A stretch of 64,000 nt of DNA from an uncultured Bifidobacteriaceae bacterium (GCA_964501785.1 CAZCUD010000006.1:158084-222083), one strand, 5' to 3'; positions 9,362 to 64,000 are shown, numbered from the stretch's first letter. Numbers and translations: made by a program. Notes: generated by a model not told the origin, from the sequence alone.

Positions 9362-9392
9362 GCGGAGACGCTCGAGAGCGAGTGCCGGGTCC

Positions 9393-21489: not shown

Positions 21490-21503
21490 GAGAACCTGTT
21501 CTA
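21490..21503. promoter_or_regulatory. KstR-type operator-like box GAGAACCTGTTCTA abutting the acyl-CoA ligase start codon
   Basis: It matches TnnAACnnGTTnnA at 13 of 14 positions (first T is G). It is an imperfect palindrome lying directly upstream of GTG 21489 on the minus strand. Confidence 0.55.
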
Positions 21504-24387: not shown

Positions 24388-24393
24388 GTTCTC
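24380..24393. promoter_or_regulatory. KstR-type operator-like box TAGAACATGTTCTC in a 9-bp divergent gap
   Basis: It contains the perfect 12-bp palindrome AGAACATGTTCT and fits TnnAACnnGTTnnA at 13/14 positions. It is centred on the ligase ATG (24385-24387) and ends 3 nt before the SDR ATG at 24397. Confidence 0.6.
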
Positions 24394-27667: not shown

Positions 27668-28888
27668 GTGACATCGGTACCCACCAGCGTGCCGGGCACC
27701 GGCGCACCGGATCTGTTCGACCTCTCGCTGTTCGCCGACGGCCCGCCGCACGAGCTCTTCGCACGCCTGCGGGCAGAGTCACCGGTGACGTTCTTGCCCG
27801 AGCGCGACGGGCCCGGCTTCTGGGGCGTCTTCTCGTACGACGAGCTGTTCGAGGTCTCGCGCCAGCCGCAGCGCTTCGGCTCGTACCCGAGCGTCTTCAT
27901 CCACGACGACGAGGGCGAGGAGACGGGCGCGAGCGAGCTGATGCTCAACCAGGACCCGCCCCGCCACACCCAGCTGCGGAAGCTGGTCAACAAGGGCTTC
28001 ACGCCGCGCCAGATCAATGCGCTCGAGCCGCGCATCCGCGAGCGGGTCGGGGCGATCCTCGACAGCGCAGCGGCGCAGGGAACGTTCGACCTCGTCAGCG
28101 ACCTCGCGGTCGAGGTGCCACTCCAGGTGATCGCGGAGCTCGTCGGCGTGCCCGAGGACGAGCGCCACACGGTGTTCGCGTGGACCGAGCGCATGATGAC
28201 GATCGACGATCCCGAGTCGGAGGGGGGCGTCGAGGACGCACGTGCCGCGATCGGCGAGATGTTCGCCTACGTCGACCGCCTCGCCGCCGAGCGCGCCGAG
28301 AGCGACGGCGACGACCTGCTGAGCGTGCTGCTGCGCGCCGAGGTCGACGGTGACCGGTTGACGCCGCTCGACGTCGATCTGTTCTTCATGCTGCTGATGA
28401 ACGCGGGCAGCGAGACGACCCGCAACCTCATCACCGGCGGGATGCTGACGCTGTTCCAGCAGCCCGACGAGCGGGAGCGACTCGCGAGCGATGCCGCGCT
28501 GCTCCCCACGGCGATCGAGGAGATGCTCCGCTGGGTGACGCCCGTGATGCACTTCCGGCGGACGGCGCGTGCCGACACCGAGCTCGGCGGCCAGGAGATC
28601 CGCGAAGGCGACAAGGTCGTGATGTGGTACTCGTCGGCGAACCGCGACGAGTCGCAGTTCCCCGATGCCGATCGCTTCGACGTCGGGCGCACACCCAACG
28701 ACCACGTCGCGTTCGGCGCCGGCGGCCCTCACTTCTGCCTCGGTGCGAGCCTCGCCCGCCTCGAGGCGCGGATCGTGTTCGAGGAGCTGCTCGAGCGGAT
28801 GCCCCGCCTCGCACCCGCCGGGCCGGTGAAGCGCCTCGGGTCCAACTTCATCAACGGCATCAAGTCGCTCCCCGTCACGACCGGCTGA
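27668..28888 (+). CDS. Cytochrome P450
   Basis: ORF track with a GTG start. It has the I-helix NAGSETTRN, ExxR (EEMLRW) and the heme loop FGAGGPHFCLG. Confidence 0.95.
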   Translation: MTSVPTSVPGTGAPDLFDLSLFADGPPHELFARLRAESPVTFLPERDGPGFWGVFSYDELFEVSRQPQRFGSYPSVFIHDDEGEETGASELMLNQDPPRHTQLRKLVNKGFTPRQINALEPRIRERVGAILDSAAAQGTFDLVSDLAVEVPLQVIAELVGVPEDERHTVFAWTERMMTIDDPESEGGVEDARAAIGEMFAYVDRLAAERAESDGDDLLSVLLRAEVDGDRLTPLDVDLFFMLLMNAGSETTRNLITGGMLTLFQQPDERERLASDAALLPTAIEEMLRWVTPVMHFRRTARADTELGGQEIREGDKVVMWYSSANRDESQFPDADRFDVGRTPNDHVAFGAGGPHFCLGASLARLEARIVFEELLERMPRLAPAGPVKRLGSNFINGIKSLPVTTG

Positions 28889-47821: not shown

Positions 47822-48943
47822 GTGGCGACCCGGGTCACCGACCGTCTCCTGCCCACGACGATGGTCGGCTCGTACCCGCGGCCGCGGTGGTTCACCCACC
47901 AGCTCGACGGTCGCGACGTCCTCGAGGCGTTCAAGTCGGTCGAGCACGCCGAGGCGTACCGCGACGCGACCCGCGCGGTCATCGGCGACGAGCTCGACGC
48001 GGGGCTCGACGTCGTGACCGACGGGCAGATGTGGTTCGACGACCTCCACATGGGGATCGGGTCGTTCTTCTGGTACTGGTTCGAGCGGATCCCCGGCTTC
48101 GGTCCCGAGATGGTGCTGCACCGCAACCGCGATCGCGCGAGCGGGCGCGACGTGTTCGTCATGGACGAGGCCGGATCGGCGATCCTGCGCGGCCCGGTCG
48201 GCCGAGGTCCGTTGCGCCTCGCCTACCTGTACGACGTCGCCCAACAGCTCACCGACCGACCGGTCAAGGCGTCGGTCGGTGCCGGACCGTGCCAGCTCAG
48301 TGGGCTGGTGCACTTCGAGTCCGGACCGATCAAGGACCGCTTCGAGCTGTCGACCGCGCTCGCCGAGGTGTTCAACGCCGAGCTGCTCGAGCTCCAGGAT
48401 GCGGGCTGCACCTATGTGCAGTACGAGGACCTCGGCGCCTGGACCCCGAACCTGACCGGTGAGCAGGACTTCGCGTGGGTCACCGAGACGGTCAACCGGG
48501 TGCTGGCCGGCGTCACCGTGCGCAAGGCGTGGCACTTCTGCCTCGGCAACGCGTGGGGCAACCGCCTCGACGCGCTGGTGCGCGGTGGATACGGCGAGGT
48601 CGTGCCGCACTACCTCGACGTCGATGTGGACGAGCTCACGCTCGACTTCGCCTGCCGGGAGATGGCCGACGCGGCGGTCCTGAAGGAGATCCCGGTCGAC
48701 CTCGACGTCGGTGTCGGCGTGATCGACGTGCGCAACCTCGAGATCGAGCAGCCGGAGCAGGTCGCGGAGCGGATCCGCGCGGTGCTCGGGTTCGTCGACG
48801 CGGAGCGAGTGACCCTCACGACCGACTGCGGGCTCAAGCAGCTCCCGCGCGCGGTGGCGATCGCGAAGCTGCGCTCGCTGGCCGCCGGCGCGGCGATCGT
48901 CCGGGGTGAGCTCGAGGGCGGACGAGCGGAGGAGGGCCGGTGA
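47822..48943 (+). CDS. Cobalamin-independent methionine synthase (MetE C-terminal / UROD-like) family protein
   Basis: ORF 47792..48943. The preferred start is GTG 47822, which has a TACAGT -10-like hexamer 7 nt upstream. It has LPTTMVGSYPRPRWF, and the C-terminal LTTDCGLK is typical of the MetE-like fold. Confidence 0.8.
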   Translation: MATRVTDRLLPTTMVGSYPRPRWFTHQLDGRDVLEAFKSVEHAEAYRDATRAVIGDELDAGLDVVTDGQMWFDDLHMGIGSFFWYWFERIPGFGPEMVLHRNRDRASGRDVFVMDEAGSAILRGPVGRGPLRLAYLYDVAQQLTDRPVKASVGAGPCQLSGLVHFESGPIKDRFELSTALAEVFNAELLELQDAGCTYVQYEDLGAWTPNLTGEQDFAWVTETVNRVLAGVTVRKAWHFCLGNAWGNRLDALVRGGYGEVVPHYLDVDVDELTLDFACREMADAAVLKEIPVDLDVGVGVIDVRNLEIEQPEQVAERIRAVLGFVDAERVTLTTDCGLKQLPRAVAIAKLRSLAAGAAIVRGELEGGRAEEGR

Positions 48944-50043
48944 CCGACTTCAGCACCACGATGTCGGCTCGCATCACCGAGTTCGACGGCAAGACCCCGC
49001 TCCAGGTGCTCGCCGAGCGCGGCGGCGCGCGCCCGACGACGCTGTCCTCGCTCGAGCGCTTCCCCTACTACCGGGCGTTCCCGTACGCCTGGTACTTCGC
49101 CGCCTACTCGGCCGACCTCGCCGTCGGCGAGGTGCGCACGGTCCACTGGCTCGCCCGCGACCTGGTCGTCTGGCGCGGCGACGACGGCGCGGCGCACGTC
49201 ATGGACGCGTACTGCCCGCACATGGGGGCGCACCTCGGGTACGGAGGTCGCGTCGAGGGCTGCAACCTCGTGTGCCCGTACCACTGGTGGGAGTACGACG
49301 GCGACGGCGCCAACGTCCGCATCCCCTACGCCGACCGACCCAACGGCAGGGCGCGGGTCCGCTCGTACCCCACGATCGACCGCAACGGGCTGATCATGTT
49401 CTGGTACCACCCCGGCGGCGCGGCACCGATGTGGGAGATCCCCGAGATCCCCGAGCTGTCCGACCCGCGCTGGACCGACGAGTTCCGCGCCGAGTGGGAC
49501 GTCCGCTGCCCGTGGCAGGAGATGGCGGAGAACGGGCCCGACTACGTGCACCTCAAGACCGTGCACGGTGCCGCGTCGGTCCCCGAGGTGGAGTCGCTCA
49601 CCTACGAGGGGCCGTTCAGCCACCTCCGTTCGAAGGTCAGCTTCGCGACGCCGCGCGGACCGCAGGAGGGACGGATCGACACCGACTCGTGGGGGCCGGG
49701 CTTCGCGATCGCACGGTTCTCGGGCATCACGCCGGCGCTCTTCGTCAACCTCACGACGCCGATCGACTGGGAGCTGACCCGCTCGATCAAGCTCTACCGC
49801 GTCGAGCGCCTCGGCGACTCCGACGAGGATCGGGCGCGGGTGCAGCGCGTCGGCGACGCGCTCGTGCGCGACCTGCGCAAGCAGATGGACGAGGACGTCG
49901 TCATCTTCGACCACAAGGTCTGGGTCGACCCCCCGGCCCTCGCGCCCGACGACGGCCCGATCATCAAGTTCCGCAAGTGGGCGGAGCAGTTCTACGTCGA
50001 CGGCGACCCGATCGCTGCGGGTCGAGGGGGAGGGCGGGCGTGA
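48940..50043 (+). CDS. Rieske [2Fe-2S] non-heme-iron oxygenase, KshA-like (3-ketosteroid 9-alpha-monooxygenase oxygenase-subunit family)
   Basis: ORF track with a GTGA overlap. It has FPYAWYFAAYSADL and the Rieske motif CPHMGAHL...CPYHWW. Its length of about 367 aa and its layout match KshA-type enzymes. Confidence 0.9.
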   Translation: MTDFSTTMSARITEFDGKTPLQVLAERGGARPTTLSSLERFPYYRAFPYAWYFAAYSADLAVGEVRTVHWLARDLVVWRGDDGAAHVMDAYCPHMGAHLGYGGRVEGCNLVCPYHWWEYDGDGANVRIPYADRPNGRARVRSYPTIDRNGLIMFWYHPGGAAPMWEIPEIPELSDPRWTDEFRAEWDVRCPWQEMAENGPDYVHLKTVHGAASVPEVESLTYEGPFSHLRSKVSFATPRGPQEGRIDTDSWGPGFAIARFSGITPALFVNLTTPIDWELTRSIKLYRVERLGDSDEDRARVQRVGDALVRDLRKQMDEDVVIFDHKVWVDPPALAPDDGPIIKFRKWAEQFYVDGDPIAAGRGGGRA

Positions 50044-50861
50044 GCACCGAGATGGATGACGTCGACCTCTCGGGCGGTGCCGCGAAGTACACGATCGCCG
50101 CCGACGACGACACCGCGGCGCGCGAGCACGAGCGCCTCCGCGTGCTCGGGCGTTGGCGCGACCCTTCGACGTTCGCCGCGCTCGAGGCGACGGGGGTCGG
50201 ACCGGGCTGGCGCTGCCTCGAGGTCGGTGCGGGGGCGGGGACCACGTCGGCGTGGCTGGCCGAGCGCGTCGGCGAGTCGGGATCGGTGCTGTCGACCGAC
50301 GTCGACCTGCGCTTCCACGGCCCCGCGGTGGGCAACACCGAGATCCGCGAGCACGACATCACCCGTGACCCGCTGCCGGAAGGCACGTTCGACCTCGTGC
50401 ACGCACGTGCGGTGCTCCAGCACGTCGCGGAGCGCGAGCTCGCGCTCGAGCGGATGATCGCGGCGCTCAAGCCCGGCGGGTGGATCGTCGTCGAGGAAGC
50501 CGACATGCGCGCCTTCGAGGCGCAGCCGCTCCCCGAGCCCCTGGCGACGCTCCACCAGGTCATGGCCTTCGGCGCGGCGGCCCAGGAGTACCGCGAGCCC
50601 AGCTTCGGCACGCGGCTGCTCCGCCTGTTCCAGGAGCACGGGCTCACCGAGGTCACCGCCACCGGGCTGGTCGAGACCATGCGCGCGGGAGAGGACAGCG
50701 GCGAGTGGTGGTTCCTCGCCGTCGAGCACGTCCGCGACCGCATCGTCGATGCCGGCGTCATGCCCGCCGACGACTTCGACGCCGCGCTCGCGATCGCCCG
50801 CACGCCCGGCTTCATGATGCTCGGCCCGATCTCGATCCAGGTCGTCGGGCGCAAGCCGTGA
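50040..50861 (+). CDS. Class I SAM-dependent methyltransferase
   Basis: Tail of ORF 48906..50861, starting at GTG 50040 (GTGA overlap; alternative ATG 50052). It has motif I LEVGAGAGTTS and motif post-II FDLVHARAVLQH. Confidence 0.85.
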   Translation: MSTEMDDVDLSGGAAKYTIAADDDTAAREHERLRVLGRWRDPSTFAALEATGVGPGWRCLEVGAGAGTTSAWLAERVGESGSVLSTDVDLRFHGPAVGNTEIREHDITRDPLPEGTFDLVHARAVLQHVAERELALERMIAALKPGGWIVVEEADMRAFEAQPLPEPLATLHQVMAFGAAAQEYREPSFGTRLLRLFQEHGLTEVTATGLVETMRAGEDSGEWWFLAVEHVRDRIVDAGVMPADDFDAALAIARTPGFMMLGPISIQVVGRKP

Positions 50862-51463
50862 GCGCGGCGCGCCCGGCAGCTCCCGTCGTCACCCGCCGGG
50901 TGCTCCGCTCGGACGCCGTCGCGACGCGCCGGCGGATCATCGAGAGCGCGGTCGAGCTCGCGCGCGACCGACCCATGGCCGAGCTGACGATGCGCGACAT
51001 CGCCCGGACCGCCGAGGTGTCGGTCGCGACCGCGTACACGTACTTCTCGTCGAAGGAGCACGTGTACGCCGAGGCCTACGTCGACGGGGTCGAGACGCTG
51101 ACCGAGAGCCTGCGCGCTCGCCCGCCGACGGGTGCGACGGCGGCCGACCGGGTCGCCGCGGTGCTCCGACGGGCCGTGAAGGGCGCGGCCGCGACCGGCG
51201 ACGTCGTGCAGGCGACCGCGATCGCACTCGCGTCGTCCGACCCCGCGGTCGCGCCGCTCCGCCCGGTCGCCGACGCGGCCTTCGCCGAGTGGATGGCGAT
51301 CGCGCTCGACGGTGCGGCGATCGCCGACCACGACGAGGTCGTGAAGCTGCTCCAGCTCACGATGTTCGCGTCGTTCGTCGCGGTCGCCCACGGCCGGCAG
51401 ACCATCGCCGAGAGCGGCCGCCTGCTCGACCTCGCGGTCCGCCGCCTCGTCGTCGAGCGCTGA
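50858..51463 (+). CDS. TetR/AcrR-family transcriptional regulator
   Basis: Tail of ORF 50480..51463, starting at GTG 50858 (GTGA overlap). HTH: TMRDIARTAEVSVATAYTYFSSKEHV. Confidence 0.85.
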   Translation: MSAARPAAPVVTRRVLRSDAVATRRRIIESAVELARDRPMAELTMRDIARTAEVSVATAYTYFSSKEHVYAEAYVDGVETLTESLRARPPTGATAADRVAAVLRRAVKGAAATGDVVQATAIALASSDPAVAPLRPVADAAFAEWMAIALDGAAIADHDEVVKLLQLTMFASFVAVAHGRQTIAESGRLLDLAVRRLVVER

Positions 51464-53824: not shown

Positions 53825-54484
53825 TCAGCTCGGGCGCGTCCCGTCGCGGGGTGCGATGAACACGATGTCGGCCTCGGCGAGCCGCTCGCCGTCGCAGTCG
53901 GCGGTGCCCCACACGAAGATCTTGCGGCCCTCGACGCGCTCGACGCCGGCCTCGTAGTCGATCCGGCGGCCGAGCGGCGTCGGTCGCAGCATCCGCACCG
54001 TGAGGGTGCCGGTGTACCCGGCGATGCCCGACAGCGTCTGCGCAGAGCCCATCAGGTCGTCGAATGCCGCCGCGACGAAGCCGCCGTGCACGTGGCCCGC
54101 GGGCCCCTCGTAGGCCGGTGAGTACGTCGCCGACCCGATCGCGCGGTCCTCGGTGAGGTCCCACTGCACCGGCGCGGCGAGCGGGTTGGAGCGGCCGCTG
54201 ATGCCGCTGCGCTCCAGCAGGGCGCCGTCGTCGCCGCCGGCCGACCCCAGGCCGCCCTTGGCGTGCAGCGATGGCATCCGCTCGAGCGCGTCGTTGACGA
54301 GGTCGACCTCCTCGCGCAGCGCGTCGACCCGAGCGAGGTCGTCGACCTCGTGGGAGTCGAGATGCGCGGTGAGCTCGATGAGCCGCTTCACCGAACGCAC
54401 CAGCGCGTGCTTGGTCGCACGCGGCCCGTCCTCGACCGGATCGTGCGGGTCGTACGTCGTGTGGGCATCGGGTGGCAGCGTCAC
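53825..54484 (-). CDS. PaaI-family hotdog thioesterase (paralog)
   Basis: ORF track with a GTG start. Motifs: GHVHGGFVAAAFDDLMG...GTLTVRMLRPTP...GRKIFVWG. Confidence 0.8.
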   Translation of the reverse strand: MTLPPDAHTTYDPHDPVEDGPRATKHALVRSVKRLIELTAHLDSHEVDDLARVDALREEVDLVNDALERMPSLHAKGGLGSAGGDDGALLERSGISGRSNPLAAPVQWDLTEDRAIGSATYSPAYEGPAGHVHGGFVAAAFDDLMGSAQTLSGIAGYTGTLTVRMLRPTPLGRRIDYEAGVERVEGRKIFVWGTADCDGERLAEADIVFIAPRDGTRPS

Positions 54485-54546
54485 GCCGCCGAGCCTACGG
54501 CCGAAGACGCGCGCAACCGATCGGGTGCCTCGAGCGTCTTCTTCGT

Positions 54547-54744
54547 GTGAGACGCGATGGTGTGCGTCGGTTCGGAGACCTGCTGCTCGGGCTGCTCTTC
54601 GCGGTGACCCTCGGGCTCGGGGTCTACGCGACCGCGGGTGGGGTGGACTCCCCGCGGGACGATGCTCCGACGCCGAGCACCTTCCCGATCGAACCCGTCA
54701 CGCCTGCCTCGTCGGCGGACCGACCGGCGCCGGTGGCGCACTGA
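54547..54744 (+). CDS. Possible small single-pass membrane protein
   Basis: Part of ORF 54472..54744, starting at GTG 54547. VRRDGVRRFGDLLLGLLFAVTLGLGVYATAGG has one hydrophobic helix and is followed by a Pro-rich tail. GC3 is high. I recognise no family. Confidence 0.3.
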   Translation: MRRDGVRRFGDLLLGLLFAVTLGLGVYATAGGVDSPRDDAPTPSTFPIEPVTPASSADRPAPVAH

Positions 54745-54762
54745 GCGGTCGGGGCGGCGCGG

Positions 54763-55098
54763 TCAACCCGTGCGGTAGATCTCGTCGTAGTTGCCCCACT
54801 CGATCTCGCCGCCCTCGGCCAGGTCGCGCAGCCGCTGCGCCCACTCCTTGGTCTCGGGCCGATCGTTGTTCTTCGCGGCCTCGTCGACCGCAGAGACGTC
54901 GGGGTCGACGACGCCGAACTCGGCCACGATCACGTAGCGGCCGGGGTTCTCCCGGTCGGCCAGCACGTGCGAGCCCATGTAGCCCATCACGTCGGCCTCG
55001 GCCTGGAGCTCGTCCCACTTCGCGGACATCTCGATGAGCGTGTCGGGGTCGTCGCACCGAAACGTCATCGTCTGCGTGAAGTTGACGTTGCGCTTCAC
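54763..55098 (-). CDS. Small alpha+beta (ABM/Dabb-like) hypothetical protein
   Basis: ORF 54763..55188 trimmed to GTG 55098, preceded by GGAGGGAGGGGG (GTGA overlap with the upstream stop). About 111 aa: FTQTMTFRCDDPDTLIEMSAKWDELQ...RYVIVAEF. Confidence 0.6.
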   Translation of the reverse strand: MKRNVNFTQTMTFRCDDPDTLIEMSAKWDELQAEADVMGYMGSHVLADRENPGRYVIVAEFGVVDPDVSAVDEAAKNNDRPETKEWAQRLRDLAEGGEIEWGNYDEIYRTG

Positions 55099-56210
55099 GT
55101 GCTCGCCCCCTCCCTCTCCGCAGCGAAGCGTTGCTGGATCTCCGACATGCCCTCCAGGTCGAACGCGCCCGGCGACCCGATCTCGCACGCGGCCGGCGAC
55201 TTCTCGGGCACATGCAGCATCTCACGGACCTCCTCGACCGACCGATGCACGTGGTCGTCGTAGCCGATGTCGAACAGGTCCGTATCGCACTGCATGCTGA
55301 CGATCTTGCCCCGCCGGATCGCGTCGGCGATGCGCACGTGCATCCCCGCGCCCTGGGCGTGCCGCTCGCGCGCGTCGCGGTCGAAGAAGCCGGTGCTCTC
55401 GATGTACCCGGTGTCGAAGAGTCCGATCAGCGTCGCGAGCCAGGCGAACCCCTTGGGGTCGGGGTCGGCGCGCCCGATGAACGCGAACACCTCGATCTCG
55501 CCCCGCAGGTTGGTGCCGTAGTCGGCGAGCACGTGCACGTAGTCGTGTTGCGCCAGGTACTTCGGCGCGCCGCCGGGTGCGCCGGGCAGCTCGAAGCCCC
55601 GACCGTCGTACATCTCGACCACTCGGCGACCCAGCGTCCCCTCGGGCAGCTCGCGGTACGACGCCCAGCGCTCTGCGAGCGCGGGGTCGAGCTCTGGTGG
55701 TTGGAACGCGGCTGCTTGTCGCCGTTGGGCGGCGACGCCGGCGTCGCCGGTGTCGCGCACGTGCTCCTCGAAGCCGCTGCGCTGGAGGTCCATCCAGGCG
55801 AGGCCGTACGCGCCCTGCGCGTAGCGGCGCGCCACGCGCACGAACTTGTCCTCGATCCCCAGCGCCTGGGCGTACTTCGCCACCCGCGCCGCGACCTCCA
55901 CGGGGATCGGCCGCAGGATCATCTCGGCGAGCACCATGTGGTGCACGATCCGCTGGCGGTGGCCCTGGTCGCGATGGGCGAGCGCTTCGGCCAGCCCGTC
56001 GGGGGAGAGCGGCTCGAGCGAGTGGTAGTCGACCTCGTATCCCGTCAGGGAGCTCGCGATGGCACCGAGCAGCTGGGCCTGTACCTCGGTGAGCCCGTCG
56101 GCAGGGGCGACCGCGGTCGCGATGCCGCGTGCGGTGAGCAGGACCTCCTCGCGATCGATGGGGTCGGGCCCGAGGTCGGTGGGCGGTGGGATCGAGCTCA
56201 CGGCCCCCAT
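55095..56210 (-). CDS. Coq4-like metal-binding protein with N-terminal extension
   Basis: ORF 55095..56822 trimmed to ATG 56210. It contains HDYVHVLADYGTNLRGE, i.e. HDxxH-x11-E, the Coq4-family zinc-ligand signature. Confidence 0.7.
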   Translation of the reverse strand: MGAVSSIPPPTDLGPDPIDREEVLLTARGIATAVAPADGLTEVQAQLLGAIASSLTGYEVDYHSLEPLSPDGLAEALAHRDQGHRQRIVHHMVLAEMILRPIPVEVAARVAKYAQALGIEDKFVRVARRYAQGAYGLAWMDLQRSGFEEHVRDTGDAGVAAQRRQAAAFQPPELDPALAERWASYRELPEGTLGRRVVEMYDGRGFELPGAPGGAPKYLAQHDYVHVLADYGTNLRGEIEVFAFIGRADPDPKGFAWLATLIGLFDTGYIESTGFFDRDARERHAQGAGMHVRIADAIRRGKIVSMQCDTDLFDIGYDDHVHRSVEEVREMLHVPEKSPAACEIGSPGAFDLEGMSEIQQRFAAEREGAST

Positions 56211-56272
56211 CTTCGCGAACCCGGCCGTCCGGCACCCGCCGTACCCGGGCGGATCGATCCGGCGTCCGGGCG

Positions 56273-57001
56273 TCAGGTCTCGAACCGGGGCGAGGGCACG
56301 TCCTGCACGCCGAAGCGGGCCGAGATCAGCTGCACCCGGCCGTGATCGTCCCGTTCGAGGAGCTCGGCCGCCGCGTCGGCCACCGCGTCGGCGGGCATGA
56401 AGCTCGCGCCGGTCTGCCGGCCGGCCTCGACCCGAGCGCCCGCGACCATGGGCGTGTCGATCCCCGAGGGGCAGATGGCGTGCAGCCGCACCCCCTGGCG
56501 CCACAGCTGCGGGGCCACGCTGCGCACGAACCCCACCACCGCGTGCTTCGTCGCGGCGTAGATCGGGTCGCCCCCGTACGGGATCAGTCCCGCGAGCGAC
56601 GCGGTCACCGCGATCGAGCCGCCGCCTCGCTCGATCATCAGCGGCGCGAGCGCATGGACGCCGAGCACGACGCCGTCGAGGTTGACCCCGACCATGGCGC
56701 GGTAGCGGGCGACGGGCGTGTCGAGGAAGGGCAGCGCGTCGGACGCGGCGAGGATCCCCGCGTTCAGGTGAGCGAGCTCGACGCCCTCGTCGGCGCGCAG
56801 CTCGTCGGCGAGGGCGGCCCACCCGGTGGCGTCGGAGACGTCGAGGTGCACGAACCGCCCCCCGACCTCCTCGGCGACCCGCCGACCGCCCGTGTCGTCG
56901 ATGTCGACGACCACGACCGATGCGCCGTCGCGTGCGAGCCGTCGGGCACTCGCCTCGCCGACGCCGGACGCGCCGCCGGTCACCACCGCGACCCGGCTCA
57001 A
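56273..57001 (-). CDS. SDR-family oxidoreductase
   Basis: ORF track. TTG 57001 overlaps the upstream stop (TTGA). Motifs: VTGGASGVG, YAATK. Confidence 0.9.
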   Translation of the reverse strand: MSRVAVVTGGASGVGEASARRLARDGASVVVVDIDDTGGRRVAEEVGGRFVHLDVSDATGWAALADELRADEGVELAHLNAGILAASDALPFLDTPVARYRAMVGVNLDGVVLGVHALAPLMIERGGGSIAVTASLAGLIPYGGDPIYAATKHAVVGFVRSVAPQLWRQGVRLHAICPSGIDTPMVAGARVEAGRQTGASFMPADAVADAAAELLERDDHGRVQLISARFGVQDVPSPRFET

Positions 57002-57783
57002 CGGTCAGGCCGGTTCCGTGAGAGGTGCGCGCCGTTGTCGGCGAGCACGAGCTGGCCGGTCACGCCGCGCCCGAGGTCGGACGCGAGCGCGACCACGAGG
57101 CGCGCGAGGTCGTCGGGCTCGCACATCCGCCGGAGGGGGATCGATTCGGTGAGCGCGGCCACGTACTCGTCGGTCAGCGCGTCCGCCACCGTCGGGGTCA
57201 GCGTCGTGCCGGGCGCCACCGCGTTCACCCGGATGCCGTGCGGGCCGAGCTCGGCCGCGAGGGTCGTGGTGAGGTGGTTGACGGCGGCCTTCGCGGCGCC
57301 GTACGCGGCGAGCCCGAGCGCCGGACGGGTCGACTCACCCGAGCTCACGTTGAGGATCACGCCGCCGCGAGCCTGTTGGACCATGTTCCGGGCCTCGGCG
57401 CGACAGCACGCCGCGGTGAGCACGAGGTTCTGCTCGATGACGTCTCGCACGTACGCGTCGTCCTGCTCGACGGCGGGCGTGGGGGTGCGTCCGGCGAGGC
57501 TGCCCACGTTGTTGACGGCGACGTCGAGTCGGCCGAGGTCCTGGCGCGCCGATCCGACGACGCGCTCGGCCTCGCCTGCTTCGCGCAGGTCGGCGACCTG
57601 GGGGACGACGAACGTGCCGTGGGTCTTCAGGTCCGCGACCGCGTCGTCGAGCGCCGCTCGGTCGCGGTCGACGATCGCGACGTCGCACCCTGCCCGCACC
57701 AGCCACCCCGCGATCGCGCGGCCGATGCCCATCCCGGCGCCGGTGACGATCGCCCCCTTCCCCTGGAGGCCCAGGTCGATCAC
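56998..57783 (-). CDS. SDR-family oxidoreductase
   Basis: ORF track with a GTG start. Motifs: VTGAGMGIG, NNVG, YGAAK. Confidence 0.9.
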   Translation of the reverse strand: MIDLGLQGKGAIVTGAGMGIGRAIAGWLVRAGCDVAIVDRDRAALDDAVADLKTHGTFVVPQVADLREAGEAERVVGSARQDLGRLDVAVNNVGSLAGRTPTPAVEQDDAYVRDVIEQNLVLTAACCRAEARNMVQQARGGVILNVSSGESTRPALGLAAYGAAKAAVNHLTTTLAAELGPHGIRVNAVAPGTTLTPTVADALTDEYVAALTESIPLRRMCEPDDLARLVVALASDLGRGVTGQLVLADNGAHLSRNRPDR

Positions 57784-57793
57784 GGAGCCTCGA

Positions 57794-58753
57794 TCACGGC
57801 TCGATCGTCACCTTGATGGCACCGGCGGCCCGATCACCGGCCACCCGGAACGCCTCGGCGGCGTCGTCGAGCGCGAAGCGGTGCGTGATCAGCGTCTCGG
57901 CGATCGCCGGCTCGGCCGCCAGGAGGGCGGCGGCGTCACCGAGGTCGGTGCCGTGCTCGTGCGCGCCGTACGTGAACGACCACTGGAAGCCGAGCTCCTT
58001 CATCAGCGCCGGCACGCCGGGGATCGCGACGGGCGTCCAGTGCGTGCTGAGGAACACGATGCGACCGCCGGGCGCGCACAGCTCCACCGCGGTCGCGAGC
58101 GCGGACTCGGTGCCGGCGCACTCGAGCACCACGTCGTACTCACCTTCCATGGGCACCGCACCGAGGCGCTCACCGGAGACGCGCTGACGCTCGTGGCGCG
58201 CGACGAGTCCGACCTCCGCCGCCCGGGGCCGCGCCGCGGCGACGGCGGCCAGGCCGATCCCGCCTGCCCCGACGACGCCGACGCGCTCGCCACCCGAGAG
58301 CCCGGCGATGCGCACCGCGTGCGTGGCGACGCCCAGCGGCTCGACCAGGCACGCCTGCTCCGGACCGAGGCCGTCGGGGAGCGCGACGAGCGAGGAGCGG
58401 CGCACCGCGACCGACTCGGCCATGCCGCCGTCGGCCCCGATGCCGAGCACGCGCTGGGCGCCGGTGCGGCAGCGGTGCCCGAACCCCGACTCGCACTGGT
58501 CGCACGTCCCGCAGGGCTGGTTGGGGTCGATCGCGACCGGGGTGCCGTCGTCGAGCATGCCCGCGACCTCGTGGCCGAGCACGTGCGGCAGCGGGCCGTA
58601 CTCGATCAGGTGGAGGTCCGAGCCACAGATGCTCGCCGAGCGCACCTGCACGACGACCCGCTCGGCGTCGTCGGGGTCGCCCGCGGATTCGGGTGTCGGG
58701 TCGGGAGCCTCGACGACCTCGATGCCGCGCTCGGTGTTGCGCACCGCCCGCAT
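57794..58753 (-). CDS. Zinc-dependent alcohol dehydrogenase (MDR family)
   Basis: ORF track with ATG 58753. Motifs: ICGSDLH, GHEVAG, CGTCDQCESGFGHRC, GAGGIG. Confidence 0.9.
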   Translation of the reverse strand: MRAVRNTERGIEVVEAPDPTPESAGDPDDAERVVVQVRSASICGSDLHLIEYGPLPHVLGHEVAGMLDDGTPVAIDPNQPCGTCDQCESGFGHRCRTGAQRVLGIGADGGMAESVAVRRSSLVALPDGLGPEQACLVEPLGVATHAVRIAGLSGGERVGVVGAGGIGLAAVAAARPRAAEVGLVARHERQRVSGERLGAVPMEGEYDVVLECAGTESALATAVELCAPGGRIVFLSTHWTPVAIPGVPALMKELGFQWSFTYGAHEHGTDLGDAAALLAAEPAIAETLITHRFALDDAAEAFRVAGDRAAGAIKVTIEP

Positions 58754-58762
58754 CCGCGGACC

Positions 58763-60172
58763 TCAGCCGCCCGTGCGCTCGCCGCCGGTGATCTCGGACG
58801 GCTCGATCCCGAGGTAGCGCTCGAGGTTGCGGTGCAGGCTCTCGATCCGCATCTCCTCGCGCGACAGCGTGAGGTGGGTGAACCCGGGCTGGTGCAGGCC
58901 GCGCTGGGCGCGCAGCAGGTTCTCGACGTCCTGGTTGAACACCCCGCCGAGCTGGGCGTTCTCGGCTTCCATCGTCAGGTCGACGGGACGCTCGCGAGGT
59001 GCACCCGGTGCGACGCGCGAGAAGTAGAAGAGGTCCATGAGGCAGTCGTCGGGCGTGGCGCCGGGGCGGGTCCGCAGCAGGGCCAGGCTCTCGACCAGGA
59101 ACACCGGCGAGATGTTGGGGAAGCAGTTGTACTGGTGCAGGTCGGTGACCTGCGCGTCGGTGAAGTCGTCGAGGTCGACGCCTTCGGACCGCTGACGCTC
59201 GCGGATCAGACGCGCGAGGAGCGTGCGCACCGACTCGTCGGGCTCGCGCTCGGGGACCGGGCCCGGATCGTCCTGGCTGGGGCGCCCGACCCGCTCGCCT
59301 TGCGTCGCGCAGAACGACTCCCAGATCTGCTGGTCGGTCGCGCCGTCGCGCAGACGCGGGCTGGGGATCCCATAGGGCTGGTTGAGGCGACCGTGGCGCT
59401 CCCAGACCTCCTGGGGTCCGTTGACGTCGTTGGTCGACGGGATCATCTGCCGGTGGATGCCCTGCACGTGGTAGGTCTCGCTGAACGCGTCGATGCCGGT
59501 CTTCCAGTTGCACGGCAACGGGACGGTGACGAGGGCGCGGCAGGCGTACTCGTCGGGGCGGAGCCACGCGGTCTCGGCCGGCACCGGCGCGAGGAACTCC
59601 GCGAGCGGCTCCGCGTCGAGATCGAGGTTGACGAAGACCATGGGTCCCCACGTGTCGACCTGCACCGACCGCAGCGCGTAGTCGTCGTTCTTGACGACGC
59701 CGAACCCCTTGCGGGACGGGATCTCGCGCAGACGTCCGTCGAGGTCCCAGCACCACCGGTGGTAGACGCAGCGGATCTCGGTGCGGCCAGTGCCCGAGCC
59801 GTTGCACAGCTCGTTGCCACGGTGGAGGCACACGTTCTGGAACGCGCGCAGGCGCCCGTCTTCACCGCGCACGATCAGCACCGACAACGCGCCGCAGGTG
59901 TGCTCGAACCAGTCTCCCGGGTCGCGCACGTGATCGACGCTGCACGCCACCTGCCACACGTGGGGCCACAGCCGCTCGGCCTCGAGCGCGGCCCAGTCGG
60001 GCGAGGTGTACCGCGAGGCGGGCACCAGCACCGGGGTGCGCTGCGTGCTCACCGCCCCGATCGTGGAGCCGACCGGGGCCTCGTCGGTGACCTCGCCGGC
60101 GTACGCCGGGCCGCCGGGCCGGGCGTCCCGGATCCGTGCGGCGCTTCCCGGGGTCTGGGTCACGGGGTGCAC
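58763..60172 (-). CDS. Rieske [2Fe-2S] aromatic-ring-hydroxylating oxygenase alpha subunit-like protein
   Basis: ORF track. It has the Rieske motif CLHRGNELC...CVYHRWCW and a catalytic domain with ETYHVQGIH. The N-terminal start (GTG 60172) is uncertain. Confidence 0.9.
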   Translation of the reverse strand: MHPVTQTPGSAARIRDARPGGPAYAGEVTDEAPVGSTIGAVSTQRTPVLVPASRYTSPDWAALEAERLWPHVWQVACSVDHVRDPGDWFEHTCGALSVLIVRGEDGRLRAFQNVCLHRGNELCNGSGTGRTEIRCVYHRWCWDLDGRLREIPSRKGFGVVKNDDYALRSVQVDTWGPMVFVNLDLDAEPLAEFLAPVPAETAWLRPDEYACRALVTVPLPCNWKTGIDAFSETYHVQGIHRQMIPSTNDVNGPQEVWERHGRLNQPYGIPSPRLRDGATDQQIWESFCATQGERVGRPSQDDPGPVPEREPDESVRTLLARLIRERQRSEGVDLDDFTDAQVTDLHQYNCFPNISPVFLVESLALLRTRPGATPDDCLMDLFYFSRVAPGAPRERPVDLTMEAENAQLGGVFNQDVENLLRAQRGLHQPGFTHLTLSREEMRIESLHRNLERYLGIEPSEITGGERTGG

Positions 60173-60185
60173 CCTACGGCGCGAT

Positions 60186-60200
60186 CTGACGCCTCGTCAG
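60186..60200. promoter_or_regulatory. CTGACG-CCT-CGTCAG palindrome next to KstR-like box
   Basis: Perfect 6-bp arms with a 3-nt spacer. It lies 3 nt upstream of the 60204 box. Confidence 0.4.
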
Positions 60201-60202
60201 GC

Positions 60203-60231
60203 TTGAAACACGTTCCAGTCGCGGTCAGAAT
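60203..60231 (+). promoter_or_regulatory. Putative promoter of binding-protein gene 1 (TTGAAA-17 nt-CAGAAT)
   Basis: A -35-like TTGAAA (60203-60208), a 17-nt spacer and CAGAAT (60226-60231). The architecture is duplicated upstream of copy 2. An alternative -10-like TACAGT lies at 60247-60252. Confidence 0.35.
60204..60217. promoter_or_regulatory. KstR-type operator-like box TGAAACACGTTCCA
   Basis: It fits TnnAACnnGTTnnA at 14/14 positions. It overlaps the -35-like TTGAAA in the divergent region between the Rieske operon and the binding-protein gene. Confidence 0.6.
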
Positions 60232-60308
60232 CCCCCGGCCCGGTCCTACAGTCCGGGGCACCACGCAACGGAATCCGAGCCCGACCGGGCCGGTGACAAG
60301 GGGGGAAC

Positions 60309-61655
60309 GTGCAACGCACTCGCTGGGTGGCGCTGATCGCCACATTCGTGCTCTCGATGTCGGCGATGACCGCGGTCGCGTCTGCCGGGGGCGGTGGCGG
60401 CGGCGGCGGCGGTGAGCAGCCCGAGGCCACCGAGATCGGCATCACGGCAGACGAGATCCGCGTCGCGGTGATCGCCGACGTCGAGAACCCGCTCGCTCCG
60501 GGCCTGTTCGAGGGCTCGAAGAACGGTGTCGAGGGCTGGGCCGAGTACGTCAACAAGAACGGCGGCCTCGCCGGGCGTGAGGTCGTGGTCGACTTCATCG
60601 ACTCGCACCTGTCCGCCGACGACGCCCGCAACGCGTTCATCACCGCGTGCGCAGAGAACTTCGCGGTGATCGGTGCATCCGCGCTGTTCCTCAACAACGT
60701 CGACGACATCGAGTCGTGCGTCGACCAGGCCGGCAACCCGACGGGCCTGCCCGACCTGGCGGTGGTGACCACCGAGGTCGTCCAGCAGTGCTCGCCGACG
60801 ACCTACGCGATCAACCCGCCGCAGATCCTCTGCGACACGCGTGAGGAGAGCCCGCAGACGTACCAGGGCAACGCGGGGCGGTACTACTACTACGAGAAGG
60901 AGTTCGGGAAGGACCTCCACGGCGCCTACCTGTACTCGGCCGACATCCGGGCGGCGAACAACGCCAACCGGGCGACCATGGAGCCGATGCAGAAGCTCGG
61001 CATCAAGGCCGACGACGAGGTCGACATCTCCGCTCGTGCACCGCAGAGCGAGTACACGCCGGTCGTCCAGTCGATGAAGGACAACGAGTCGAACTACGCC
61101 CAGAGCGGCGCGTCGTTCAACACCACGGTGTCGCTGCGCAAGGAGGCCAAGCTCCAGGGCCTCACCGACCCCGACATCATCTGGGACTGCACGCTCCAGT
61201 GCTACGACCAGAACCTCATCGAGCAGGGCGGCGCCGACGTCGAGGGCCAGTACGTGTCGCTGCTGTTCCTGCCCTTCGAGGAGGCGAGCACCAACAAGGA
61301 GCTCAAGGCCTTCGTCAACACCGTGGGCAAGGACAACGTCGACGGCTTCGCGGCGCAGGCCTGGGCCTCGGGCGTGCTGTTCCAGCAGGCAGTGGAGCAG
61401 ATCGTCTCGGACCAGGGCGTCAACGGCGTCAACCGGCAGGCCCTCTTCGGTGCGCTCGACAGCATCACCGACTTCGACGCCAACGGCATGATCGGCACGG
61501 TCAACATCGCAGAGCGCAAGACCTCGCCCTGCTACGTGCTGCTCCAGGTCAAGGACGGCGAGTTCGTCCGGGTGACCCCGTCGAAGAAGGGCACGTTCAA
61601 CTGCGACAAGAAGAACGTGCAGCAGGTCAAGCTCGACCTCGAGACGGGCAACTGA
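60309..61655 (+). CDS. ABC transporter substrate-binding protein, Liv/HAAT (type I PBP) family, copy 1
   Basis: ORF track with GTG after AAGGGGGG. It has a hydrophobic N-terminus without a lipobox Cys, a poly-Gly linker (GGGGGGGG), and the PBP1 pattern GITADEIRVAVIADV...NKNGGLAGREVVVDFIDS. Confidence 0.9.
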   Translation: MQRTRWVALIATFVLSMSAMTAVASAGGGGGGGGGEQPEATEIGITADEIRVAVIADVENPLAPGLFEGSKNGVEGWAEYVNKNGGLAGREVVVDFIDSHLSADDARNAFITACAENFAVIGASALFLNNVDDIESCVDQAGNPTGLPDLAVVTTEVVQQCSPTTYAINPPQILCDTREESPQTYQGNAGRYYYYEKEFGKDLHGAYLYSADIRAANNANRATMEPMQKLGIKADDEVDISARAPQSEYTPVVQSMKDNESNYAQSGASFNTTVSLRKEAKLQGLTDPDIIWDCTLQCYDQNLIEQGGADVEGQYVSLLFLPFEEASTNKELKAFVNTVGKDNVDGFAAQAWASGVLFQQAVEQIVSDQGVNGVNRQALFGALDSITDFDANGMIGTVNIAERKTSPCYVLLQVKDGEFVRVTPSKKGTFNCDKKNVQQVKLDLETGN

Positions 61656-61673
61656 GCCAACGGAAGTAGCGAT

Positions 61674-61702
61674 GGGGTGCCGCGGCGACGCCGCGGCACC
61701 CC
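61674..61702 (+). terminator. Hairpin terminator after binding-protein gene 1
   Basis: GGGGTGCCGCGG-CGACG-CCGCGGCACCCC has a 12-bp stem. It lies 19 nt after the stop at 61655 and is followed by GTTCGCGT. Confidence 0.65.
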
Positions 61703-61773
61703 GTTCGCGTCCATCCGAGCACCGCTGCGGAGCGGCGTTCGGCGGGCGGTCCCCCAGGGCAGGGGCGGAGCGC

Positions 61774-61802
61774 TTGAAACGTGTTCCACCCGACGACAGG
61801 AT
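61774..61802 (+). promoter_or_regulatory. Putative promoter of binding-protein gene 2 (TTGAAA-17 nt-CAGGAT)
   Basis: TTGAAA (61774-61779), a 17-nt spacer and CAGGAT (61797-61802). This is the same layout as upstream of copy 1. Confidence 0.35.
61775..61788. promoter_or_regulatory. KstR-type operator-like box TGAAACGTGTTCCA
   Basis: It fits TnnAACnnGTTnnA at 14/14 positions. It holds the same position relative to TTGAAA and the -10-like hexamer as the box at 60204. Confidence 0.6.
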
Positions 61803-61828
61803 GACCCGAGCCGACAAGGGGGGGACCA

Positions 61829-63175
61829 GTGGCACGACTTCGCGCTCCGAAGAAGGTGGCGCTGCTCGCGGCCGCACTCGTGACGATCGCATCGATCGGG
61901 ACGACGGCGGTGGCGGGCGCGCAAGGTGGTGGCGGGGGCGGTGACTCGCTCGAAGCCACCGAAGTGGGCATCACTGCCGACGAGATCCGCATCGCGGTGA
62001 TCGCGGACGTCGAGAACCCGCTCCAGCCCGGCCTCTTCCAGGGTGCGCCGGACGCGATCAACGGGTTCGCCGAGTTCATCAACGACAACGGTGGGCTCGC
62101 GGGCCGCGAGCTCGTCGTCGACTTCCTCGACTCGCACCTGTCGGCGGACGACACGCGCAACGCGATCGTGGAGGCGTGCGAGAACAACTTCGCGATCGTC
62201 GGGACGGCTGCGCTGTTCCTCAACAACACCGACGACATGGTGAACTGCGCGAACTTGGAAGGGACCGCGGTCGGGATCCCCGACTTCCCGGTGGTGACGA
62301 CCGAGCCGGTGCACCAGTGCTCGCCGGTCTCGCACCCGATCAACCCGCCGACGCTCGACTGCGCCACGATCGACGACCACCCGCAGACCTACCGCGGGAA
62401 CATCGGGGCGACCGACTACTACCTGAGCCAGCACAAGGACCTGTCCGGCGTGTTCCTCTACCCGTCCGACCTCAAGTCGGCCAAGGACTCGCAGGTCCCG
62501 AACTTCACCGCTCAGGAGGAGTCGGGCATCAAGCTCGACGCCGAGTACGACGTCTCCGCGCGAGCGCAGCAGAGCGCGTACACGCCGATCGCCCAGCAGA
62601 TGAAGGCCGACGGCACGACCTACTGGCGCAGCGGGCTGGCGTTCAGCTCGACGATCACGATGCGCAAGGAGGCGACGCTCCAGGGCGTCACCGACGTCGA
62701 GGTCTGGGACTGCTCGCTCCAGTGCTACAACCGCCAGCTCATCGAGCAGGGTGGGAGCGACGTCGAGGACCAGTACGTGTACATGAACTTCGTCCCCTTC
62801 TTCACCGAGGCCAACGTCAACAAGATGACGAAGAGCTTCGTGAAGTACGTCGGCAAGGACAAGGTCGACGGCTTCAGCGCCCAGGCCTGGTCTGCGGGCG
62901 TGTACTTCCGGGATGCGGTGAACGCCATCGTCGAGGCAGACGGCAACAACGGGCTCACGCGTGAGGCGCTCCTCGAGGCCGCGAACAACATCAACGACTT
63001 CACCGCCGACGGGCTGATGGCGCCGACGGACGTGGGTGACCGCGTCCCCGGGGCCTGCTACGCCGTCACGCAGGTCCAGGACGGCGAGTTCAAGCGCGTG
63101 TACCCCAAGAAGAAGGGCACGTTCGACTGCAAGAGCAAGCTCGTCACGCTCGAGCTCGACTTGATCACGGGCTGA
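61829..63175 (+). CDS. ABC transporter substrate-binding protein, Liv/HAAT family, copy 2 (tandem paralog, also 448 aa)
   Basis: ORF track with GTG after AAGGGGGGG. It is collinear with copy 1 (GITADEIRIAVIADV...NDNGGLAGRELVVDFLDS). All 8 Cys positions are shared. Confidence 0.9.
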   Translation: MARLRAPKKVALLAAALVTIASIGTTAVAGAQGGGGGGDSLEATEVGITADEIRIAVIADVENPLQPGLFQGAPDAINGFAEFINDNGGLAGRELVVDFLDSHLSADDTRNAIVEACENNFAIVGTAALFLNNTDDMVNCANLEGTAVGIPDFPVVTTEPVHQCSPVSHPINPPTLDCATIDDHPQTYRGNIGATDYYLSQHKDLSGVFLYPSDLKSAKDSQVPNFTAQEESGIKLDAEYDVSARAQQSAYTPIAQQMKADGTTYWRSGLAFSSTITMRKEATLQGVTDVEVWDCSLQCYNRQLIEQGGSDVEDQYVYMNFVPFFTEANVNKMTKSFVKYVGKDKVDGFSAQAWSAGVYFRDAVNAIVEADGNNGLTREALLEAANNINDFTADGLMAPTDVGDRVPGACYAVTQVQDGEFKRVYPKKKGTFDCKSKLVTLELDLITG

Positions 63176-63246
63176 GCCGAGCGCCCGAGCGCCGACCCAC
63201 CGCAACCACGAACGACTGACCGACCGACGAGAAGGGGCATCCACAG

Positions 63247-64000
63247 GTGGCAACCGTGACGGAGCGGCTGCGGGGCCGGCAGCATCGTTCGACGTTGGTC
63301 GCGGCGCTCGTCGTCGCGATCTTCGTCGGGTTCATCGTGCAGGAGTCGTGGGCCGGTCGCGAGGTCACGACCGACTCGCTGCTCTTCTTCGTCATCGTCG
63401 GCATCACGCTCGGGTCGATCTACGCGGTCGCCGCCAGCGGCCTCGTGGTCACCTACACCACGTCGGGGATCTTCAACTTCGCCCAGGGCGCGATGGGGAT
63501 GTTCCTCGCCTTCGTGTACTGGGAGCTGAAGGTCAACGCCGGGATCCAGACGTTCGTCGCGCTGCTGTTGACCGTGCTGGTGGCCGCGCCGCTGATGGGT
63601 GCGTTCATCGAGCGGGTGTTCATGCGGAGGCTCACCACCGCGCCGCTCGTGTCGCAGCTCGTCGTGACCATCGGCCTGATGCTGTTCCTCATCGGCATCG
63701 CGGCGACGTTCTGGGACCCGGGCGAGACGCGGTCGGTCGGCACGTTCTTCGGCAGTGACGGATTCAACATCGGGGACACGTTCGTCCCGTGGTACCGGCT
63801 GATCACCGTCGTCGCCGGCCTGCTCCTGGCCCTCGGCATCCGCCTGCTCCTGTACCGGACGCGCCTCGGCGTCGCGATGCGGGCGGTCGTCGACAACCGG
63901 GAGCTCGCCGCGCTCAACGGCGCGCGACCGGGGCTCACGTCGCAGTTCTCGTGGGCGCTGGGGACCTCGATGGCGGCGCTCGCCGGCATCTTCCTCGCCG
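63247..64000 (+). CDS. Branched-chain-amino-acid-type (LivH-like) ABC transporter permease, 5' part (continues beyond window)
   Basis: Absent from the ORF track because there is no stop inside the window. Manual translation from GTG 63247 (after GAGAAGGGG) gives ...GITLGSIYAVAASGLVVTYTTSGIFNFAQGAMGMFLAF...RLGVAMRAVVDNRELAALNG, a typical LivH pattern. Confidence 0.85.
   Translation, partial: MATVTERLRGRQHRSTLVAALVVAIFVGFIVQESWAGREVTTDSLLFFVIVGITLGSIYAVAASGLVVTYTTSGIFNFAQGAMGMFLAFVYWELKVNAGIQTFVALLLTVLVAAPLMGAFIERVFMRRLTTAPLVSQLVVTIGLMLFLIGIAATFWDPGETRSVGTFFGSDGFNIGDTFVPWYRLITVVAGLLLALGIRLLLYRTRLGVAMRAVVDNRELAALNGARPGLTSQFSWALGTSMAALAGIFLA

Follow-up and report, generated by a model that had tools for sequence, protein, structure and literature searches.

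The LivJ/LivK-LivHMGF systems constitute the HAAT family of ATP-binding cassette (ABC) importers (TC 3.A.1.4), and in Escherichia coli two binding proteins, LivJ and LivK, serve one translocator. The same fold also serves aromatic- and fatty-acid import for catabolism, and binding proteins of this kind, such as those of Rhodopseudomonas palustris for p-coumarate (4F8J) and 4-hydroxybenzoate (4EVS) and the fatty-acid substrate-binding protein (SBP) of Thermomonospora curvata (4N03), are usually encoded beside the pathway genes. In mycobacteria and rhodococci, sterols enter through Mce4, the Mce/YrbE-type importer of the KstR regulon. In addition, an ABC transporter of an actinobacterial steroid cluster, CamABCD of Rhodococcus jostii RHA1 (ro04885-ro04888), imports acidic metabolites of cholate (PMC8399759, PMC6678751, PMC6498646), and uptake of steroids, isoprenoid acids and bulky hydrophobic compounds is poorly understood in bacteria other than mycolic-acid actinobacteria (PMC4810484, PMC8399759). 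Here we analyzed a 64,000-nucleotide stretch, GCA_964501785.1 CAZCUD010000006.1:158084-222083 (the window), in which a sequence-only reading had placed, at 60309-64000, a Liv/HAAT-type importer with two paralogous binding proteins as a candidate uptake system for a hydrophobic substrate. Our results indicated that an ABC uptake system of the branched-chain-amino-acid type, with two old duplicate binding proteins, is real, and that it is probably a HAAT importer under TetR repression that serves a catabolic module for hydrophobic compounds in uncultured soil Acidimicrobiia.

The transporter type was borne out by domain matches. SBP1 (60309-61655, plus strand) and SBP2 (61829-63175, plus strand) are each 448 aa long and match Pfam PF13458 (Peripla_BP_6) with 87 and 66 bits, respectively, and the gene that follows (63247-64000, plus strand) encodes the N-terminal part of a LivH/LivM-type permease (PF02653, BPD_transp_2) that is cut by the window end. 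Gene calls from third-position G+C frame analysis were clean in this DNA of 67-75% G+C. Pairwise alignment of SBP1 and SBP2 gave 53% identity over the full length, in agreement with the earlier estimate by eye that roughly half of their residues are shared. The permease fragment is 94% identical to its counterparts in the related loci L002 and L003, and in L002, whose SBP1 orthologue is 78% identical, the permease is 724 aa long with two BPD_transp_2 domains and is directly followed by a protein with two ABC_tran domains and a LivG-specific BCA_ABC_TP_C tail (PF12399); L001, L082 and L083 agree with L002 on the LivG/LivF-type ATPase domains. Therefore the system is a complete importer of the HAAT/Liv type in which both the permease halves and the ATPase halves are fused, and the ATPase and second permease that the sequence-only reading had proposed to look for beyond position 64000 were found as fused proteins in this orthologous locus. 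The binding-protein fold, the permease domains and the tailed LivG-type ATPase are shared with LivJ/K-LivHMGF, whereas the fusions set the locus apart from it. Sister operons go further: in L082 (11343-15014), L083 (11353-15054), L009, L025 and L027, the whole translocator is one polypeptide (about 1,217-1,235 aa in length) with two BPD_transp_2 and two ABC_tran domains, and its gene is flanked by Sulfotransfer_3 genes in L082 and L083, in the latter also with a TauD gene.

Both binding-protein genes are preceded by a promoter that carries a KstR-type palindrome. The SBP1 promoter/operator (60201-60231, plus strand) comprises a -35 element TTGAAA (60203-60208) and a -10 element CAGAAT (60226-60231) separated by 17 nt, and the SBP2/permease promoter/operator (61772-61802, plus strand) is built in the same way from TTGAAA (61774-61779), a 17-nt spacer and CAGGAT (61797-61802). 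An independent promoter consensus scan of 60100-63400 returned one promoter, of the sigma-70 type, TTGAAA-17-CAGAAT at 60203-60231; with the -35 element at 60203, the palindrome TGAAACACGTTCCA at 60204-60217 therefore covers the SBP1 -35 element and spacer. A second palindrome, TGAAACGTGTTCCA at 61775-61788, overlaps the SBP2 promoter. Both fit the KstR consensus TnnAACnnGTTnnA (TGAAAC-NN-GTTCCA in each case) and are its sole exact matches in the 64 kb, against 0.06 expected from shuffles (0 of 100 shuffles reached two), and a longer motif, GCTTGAAACRYGTTCCA, is common to both copies. The SBP1 box lies 32 nt from the start codon of a divergent Rieske oxygenase gene and 92 nt from the SBP1 start. 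A direct repeat (D8) joins the two promoter regions (60201-60242 versus 61772-61813, 71% identical), within a tandem duplication of about 1.5 kb that takes in promoter, ribosome-binding site (RBS) and coding sequence; judged by this repeat, the SBP2 promoter is a duplicated copy of the SBP1 promoter. Between the two genes, a GC-rich stem-loop, GGGGTGCCGCGGCG-ACG-CCGCGGCACCCC (61669-61709, plus strand), stands 3' of the SBP1 stop codon. The 81-nt stretch that contains it (61650-61730) folds with -46.9 kcal/mol (z = -4.4; none of 200 shuffles was as stable), and an equivalent hairpin is visible in L005, L008, L010, L011 and L034. The hairpin is likely a terminator or attenuator, and because such a very stable structure follows SBP1, this gene appears to form a transcription unit of its own.

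Comparison across related loci revealed that these boxes are conserved as promoter elements. In 81 such loci, 20 of the 28 exact consensus matches lay just upstream of an SBP gene. An anchored alignment of 12 SBP1-orthologue promoters showed a near-invariant 14-mer and a conserved -10 element, with the 35 nt upstream and the downstream flank diverging, and box and -10 element were kept in 11 orthologous loci although the proteins are only 64-78% identical. The SBP2 box is more variable, being conserved in L002-L004, replaced by the variant TGCAAC..GTTCCA in L012 and L032, and lost in L005, L008, L010, L015 and L034. The promoters of paralogous operons keep the TTGAAA and CAGACT elements without the GTTCCA half-site, so this half-site is a feature of the operator. 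Among the sister operons, L021 (the same as L082) and L027 carry a perfect canonical KstR box, TAGAACACGTTCTA, between the -10 element and the RBS, and L026 has at that position TAGAACACGTTCTG, with one mismatch to the canonical box. The phylogenetic footprint thus supports the KstR-consensus boxes as real operators, and the earlier claim that such boxes stand at the transporter promoters holds, with two exact sites that are conserved in orthologues.

A relaxed scan of the window added just two further sites. One KstR-like box, GAGAACCTGTTCTA (21490-21503), directly adjoins the GTG start codon (21489) of a gene for an AMP-binding ligase, and the other, TAGAACATGTTCTC (24380-24393), occupies most of the 27 nt that separate a divergent AMP-binding ligase gene on the minus strand from a short-chain dehydrogenase/reductase (SDR) gene on the plus strand. 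All four KstR-type sites in the window are intergenic, and all four are promoter-proximal. Besides these, a perfect palindrome, CTGACGCCTCGTCAG (60186-60200), is positioned between the Rieske start codon (60172) and the SBP1 box, and in L003 its counterpart is CTGACGGGCCGTCAG, where a compensatory change keeps the two arms symmetric; a second operator and a leader hairpin of the Rieske operon are both conceivable roles.

The candidate repressor is a TetR-family regulator encoded at 50858-51463 (plus strand), 9 kb from the boxes, which provides the sole TetR_N match among the called genes of the window and is syntenic in the window and its three closest loci, L002-L004. Its best NCBIfam model is KstR, at 47.7 bits against an equivalog cut-off of 280. 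Residues 9-198, which represent the full length, align to the KstR structures 3MNL, 5CW8 and 5AQC in the PDB with E of about 1e-7, and its helix-turn-helix, LTMRDIARTAEVSVATAYTYFSSKEH, is similar to that of KstR, VQMRAVADRADVAVGTLYRYFPSKVH. It is plausible that this protein is the repressor acting on the boxes. The gene is the last of a tightly coupled operon with 4-nt overlaps (47822-51463, plus strand), which encodes a MetE-like protein (Meth_synt_2), a KshA-like Rieske protein, an S-adenosylmethionine-dependent methyltransferase and the TetR; synteny of the methyltransferase-TetR pair extends to L002 and L004, and in L001/L003 the TetR is retained, directly preceded by a cut methyltransferase gene. 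Another TetR, near the canonical-box sister operon (L082, 8497-9081), was considered as support and rejected, being not specifically KstR-like and unrelated to the TetR of the window.

The transporter is accompanied by a conserved set of enzymes. As the sequence-only reading had claimed, it is divergent from a Rieske-oxygenase/dehydrogenase operon (53825-60172, minus strand), and synteny shows that the two are co-conserved as a unit. The operon encodes a Ring_hydroxyl_A-type Rieske oxygenase alpha subunit (58763-60172), a zinc-dependent alcohol dehydrogenase (Zn-ADH; 57794-58753) and two SDRs (56998-57783 and 56273-57001), followed by a 371-aa Coq4-like metalloprotein (55095-56210), an ABM-like protein (54763-55098) and a hotdog/4HBT-like protein (53825-54484). 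When the window proteins were compared with the related loci by tblastn, the Rieske, Zn-ADH, SDR, SDR and hotdog genes were found beside SBP1-SBP2-permease in L002, L003, L004, L005, L008, L010, L011, L012, L015, L032 and L034, that is, in 11 distinct loci of metagenome-assembled genomes (MAGs) besides the window (L001 and L003 are the same contig), with a partial variant in L053. An Ltp-type thiolase and a DUF35 gene are usually near this module. Only the N-terminal half of the Rieske alpha subunit matches aromatic dioxygenases. The Coq4-like protein, which was assigned by a weak PF05019 match and by fold, has an invariant HDxxH-x11-E motif, and its best fold matches are 3MSQ and 6E12, of which the 6E12 structure contains oleic acid and Mg; its solved relatives bind lipid tails. 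This Coq4-like family has more than 1,600 unnamed homologues, with no Pfam domain recorded among the 120 homologues listed, and in L019 a Coq4-like gene directly follows an SBP gene with no permease nearby.

The binding proteins belong to a divergent subfamily. SBP1 is a type-I (cluster B) SBP with a signal peptide, a poly-Gly linker, no lipobox cysteine and eight family-invariant cysteines, the last of which suggest, from their conservation, four disulfides. In both SBPs (60309-60440 and 61829-61960), a hydrophobic signal/anchor segment is followed by a run of 6-9 Gly, and such a lipobox-free architecture is unusual among actinobacterial binding proteins. An AlphaFold2 (AF2) model of SBP1 (mean predicted local distance difference test score, pLDDT, 89.7) has a LivJ/CouP-like type-I periplasmic-binding-protein fold, and Foldseek with this model gave probability 1.0 to LivJ/K-type structures. 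Neighbours of the model by fold comprise aromatic-acid binders of R. palustris, the fatty-acid SBP of T. curvata and binders of Leu/Ile/Val, with the non-amino-acid binders 4F8J, 4EVS and 4N03 among the best; as all of them are 9-17% identical, the ligand is not transferable from these neighbours. With the SBP family as query, neither sequence nor profile searches of the PDB returned a match at E <= 0.001, and no NCBIfam model, including those for amino-acid, urea and amide SBPs, matches the proteins. Compared with the solved Liv members, the SBPs of this locus have no profile match to any of them, are about 60-90 residues longer and carry the eight invariant cysteines. With the CouP-like and 4N03-like SBPs they share fold similarity only (13-17% identity, TM-score 0.6-0.8); moreover, the aromatic- and fatty-acid binders come mostly from a different phylum, and the regulator type here is a KstR-like TetR.

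The closest SBP homologues are all from uncultured Acidimicrobiia MAGs. The subfamily is compact, comprising 226 clusters at 50% identity (E <= 1e-30) among 1.84 billion representatives; its members in the genome collection all came from MAGs of Acidimicrobiia or unclassified actinomycetes, and each genome carries several paralogues. In a neighbor-joining tree, SBP1 orthologues and SBP2 orthologues fall into separate clades; therefore the duplication looks old and both copies have been maintained, which is compatible with one permease being served by two ligands or two affinities. About two thirds of 80 family loci have no permease within 10 kb, and permease-less members adjoin TetR, SDR, ECH, Zn-ADH, CoA-transferase, DUF885, WS/DGAT or sulfotransferase genes. 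In an unbiased Pfam census of the immediate neighbors of 123 paralogous SBP positions, the most frequent families were TetR (13), SDR (7), ECH (7), permease (7, a count that leaves out five fused permeases), DUF885 (6) and Zn-ADH (5), and none of the 25 families listed in it is an amino-acid-catabolism family.

In the model that we favor, SBP1 and SBP2 would reside external to the membrane and hand their cargo to one fused LivH-LivM permease with a fused LivG-LivF ATPase, and the system would be expressed as two transcription units, SBP1 alone and SBP2-permease-ATPase. A dimeric KstR-like TetR, most likely that encoded at 50858-51463, would block RNA polymerase at the boxes until released by an inducer, which by analogy with KstR may be a pathway metabolite, probably an acyl-CoA. 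Because the first box lies so close to the start of the divergent Rieske operon, transcription in both directions may be under its control. Most likely the cargo is something other than an amino acid; it would be expected to be amphipathic with a bulky hydrophobic skeleton, for example an acid or alcohol of the methyl-branched or isoprenoid, steroid-derived or alicyclic type; a steroid is only one possibility among these ligands. The neighboring oxygenase and dehydrogenases would oxidize the cargo, which would then be degraded by CoA ligases, racemase-like CoA-transferases, Ltp/DUF35 and beta-oxidation enzymes, and SBP1 and SBP2 probably divide between them two related ligands or two ranges of affinity.

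Several observations weigh against this model. The boxes at the SBP genes (TGAAAC..GTTCCA) and those at the FadD (AMP-binding ligase) genes (TAGAAC..GTTCTC) are not alike in sequence, and with two box sequence classes, two regulators and two regulons are possible; in addition, the candidate TetR scores far below the KstR equivalog cut-off, and the boxes could be bound by another TetR. In L008, L010, L012 and L032, other genes lie between the Rieske gene and the box, and therefore shared control of the divergent operon is not general. The SBPs have no lipobox that would hold them at the cell surface, the top fold matches include Leu/Ile/Val binders, and the neighbor census is heterogeneous (DUF885, AP_endonuc_2 and sulfotransferases).

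The wider gene context of the window leads to the question of whether the cargo is a sterol. A context of P450, KshA-like, FadD, thiolase, Ltp/DUF35 and AMACR-like genes had been described for the window, and our searches confirmed it. The P450 at 5129-6322 is a CYP142 homolog (428 bits), and that at 27668-28888 is a CYP125/CYP124 homolog, which scored 445 bits against a reconstructed CYP125 ancestor and 331 bits against CYP124. A KshA homolog of the KshA_C type (E = 7e-36) is encoded at 48940-50043; this Rieske protein matches curated models weakly, its top score being 64.7 bits with a 4beta-methylsterol monooxygenase model whose cut-off is 600. Also encoded are four AMP-binding ligases, thiolases, Thiolase_C_1 (Ltp) and DUF35/ChsH2 proteins, family-III (racemase-like) CoA-transferases, ECH and ACAD, and luciferase-like monooxygenases and SDRs are among the remaining genes. 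No KstD, HsaA-D, IpdAB or FadE-type ring-degradation gene was found in the 64-kb window, and no called gene of the window has an MCE or YrbE domain, so that the claimed lack of mce genes there stands. For a two-domain VOC protein (572-1561), a role as HsaC-like extradiol dioxygenase was weighed and dismissed, as no extradiol-dioxygenase equivalog matched it. The island fits side-chain-type oxidation of sterols or methyl-branched (isoprenoid) lipids, with no steroid-nucleus pathway in view.

These genes would suit a true sterol or steroid importer that substitutes for Mce4 in an Acidimicrobiia KstR regulon, with the SBPs binding two steroid species, for instance a sterol and a steroid acid. In favor of this proposal, the locus resembles the mycobacterial and rhodococcal KstR regulon in that the operator consensus occurs in promoter positions, KstR is the best curated match of the TetR, and CYP125/CYP142-family P450s, whose solved relatives are steroid C26-monooxygenases, are encoded near KshA-family, Ltp/DUF35 and FadD genes; the racemase-like CoA-transferase genes and the lack of an MCE-domain gene in the window also speak for it. 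However, membership in the KstR regulon is unproven, because the regulator falls below the equivalog cut-off and the ring-pathway genes are absent from view. Curated matches of the KshA-like protein are weak, the VOC protein has no extradiol-dioxygenase equivalog match, and CYP124/125 relatives act on methyl-branched lipids too. Furthermore, where the top PDB fold matches name a ligand, it is a small acid, an amino acid or a fatty acid, and the absence of Mce4 holds for the 64-kb window only. The transporter itself is binding-protein-dependent and Liv-type, unlike Mce4, and CamABCD is the nearest precedent, in functional terms, for ABC import of steroid-derived acids. We regard a true steroid importer as unlikely.

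Alternatively, the system might import a small aromatic or alicyclic carboxylate on which the divergent Rieske oxygenase acts directly, like the CouP/Hba-type HAAT systems of R. palustris, the lipid genes then forming a separate regulon. This proposal draws on the R. palustris aromatic-acid binders 3TX6, 4JB0, 4F8J and 4EYQ, which are the best fold neighbors of SBP1, on the conserved partnership with a Ring_hydroxyl_A-type alpha subunit and dehydrogenases, and on the sequence difference between the SBP boxes and the FadD boxes. But identity to the aromatic-acid binders is 13-16%, no better than to Leu binders, and the conserved module is without a beta subunit, an extradiol dioxygenase or a ring-cleavage pathway; in addition, the match of the Rieske protein to aromatic dioxygenases stops at its N-terminal half, and the module contains the lipid-tail-binding Coq4-like fold and sits with Ltp/DUF35. 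We regard an aromatic-acid importer as equally unlikely. An ordinary amino-acid (or amide or urea) importer, whose position in the catabolic island would be incidental, is very doubtful: the Pfam family and the permease/ATPase type are those of Liv systems and Leu/Ile/Val binders are among the top fold matches, but the SBPs match no NCBIfam amino-acid, urea or amide model and no PDB sequence or profile, a TetR-type operator and oxygenase/dehydrogenase linkage are conserved in the 11 other loci, and no amino-acid metabolism family is listed among the census neighbors. Unlike LivJ/K systems, this transporter has a TetR-type operator and is embedded in oxygenase and CoA-dependent catabolism, not in amino-acid metabolism.

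Two further features of the island lie apart from the transporter. A DUF222/HNH endonuclease gene (21775-22677, plus strand) is located between the two box-bearing ligase genes and might represent mobile or selfish DNA inside the island; L082 also has a DUF222 gene of similar kind. At 9318-12188 (plus strand), a 956-aa fusion of GNAT acetyltransferase, CoA-binding, succinyl-CoA-ligase-like and ATP-grasp domains adjoins a P-type ATPase, and its domain composition is that expected of a Pat-like protein acetyltransferase or an NDP-forming acyl-CoA synthetase.

As HAAT systems for aromatic and fatty acids are known, the TetR-repressed importer of hydrophobic compounds proposed here is a divergent new member of the HAAT family, and our literature search found no paper that connects Liv-type transporters to KstR, or a system of this kind to Acidimicrobiia. 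The locus flags an uncharacterized SBP subfamily, with no solved structure and no curated model, in abundant uncultured soil Acidimicrobiia, and it offers a testable candidate in the form of two soluble binding proteins, a 14-bp operator with a candidate repressor, and a conserved enzyme set. If the cargo is an ordinary organic acid, the finding would be one more catabolic HAAT system. A bolder proposal, which we put forward as a speculation with little probability, is that a Liv-type system does the job of Mce4 in soil Acidimicrobiia: a disulfide-rich SBP repertoire, many of its members with no permease nearby, would capture steroid-derived, isoprenoid or bulky lipid acids and feed a few fused LivHMGF translocators, up to the single-polypeptide form, under KstR-type control. 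If this were true, the Liv-type counterpart of Mce4 would represent a new route of hydrophobic-substrate uptake in monoderm actinobacteria.

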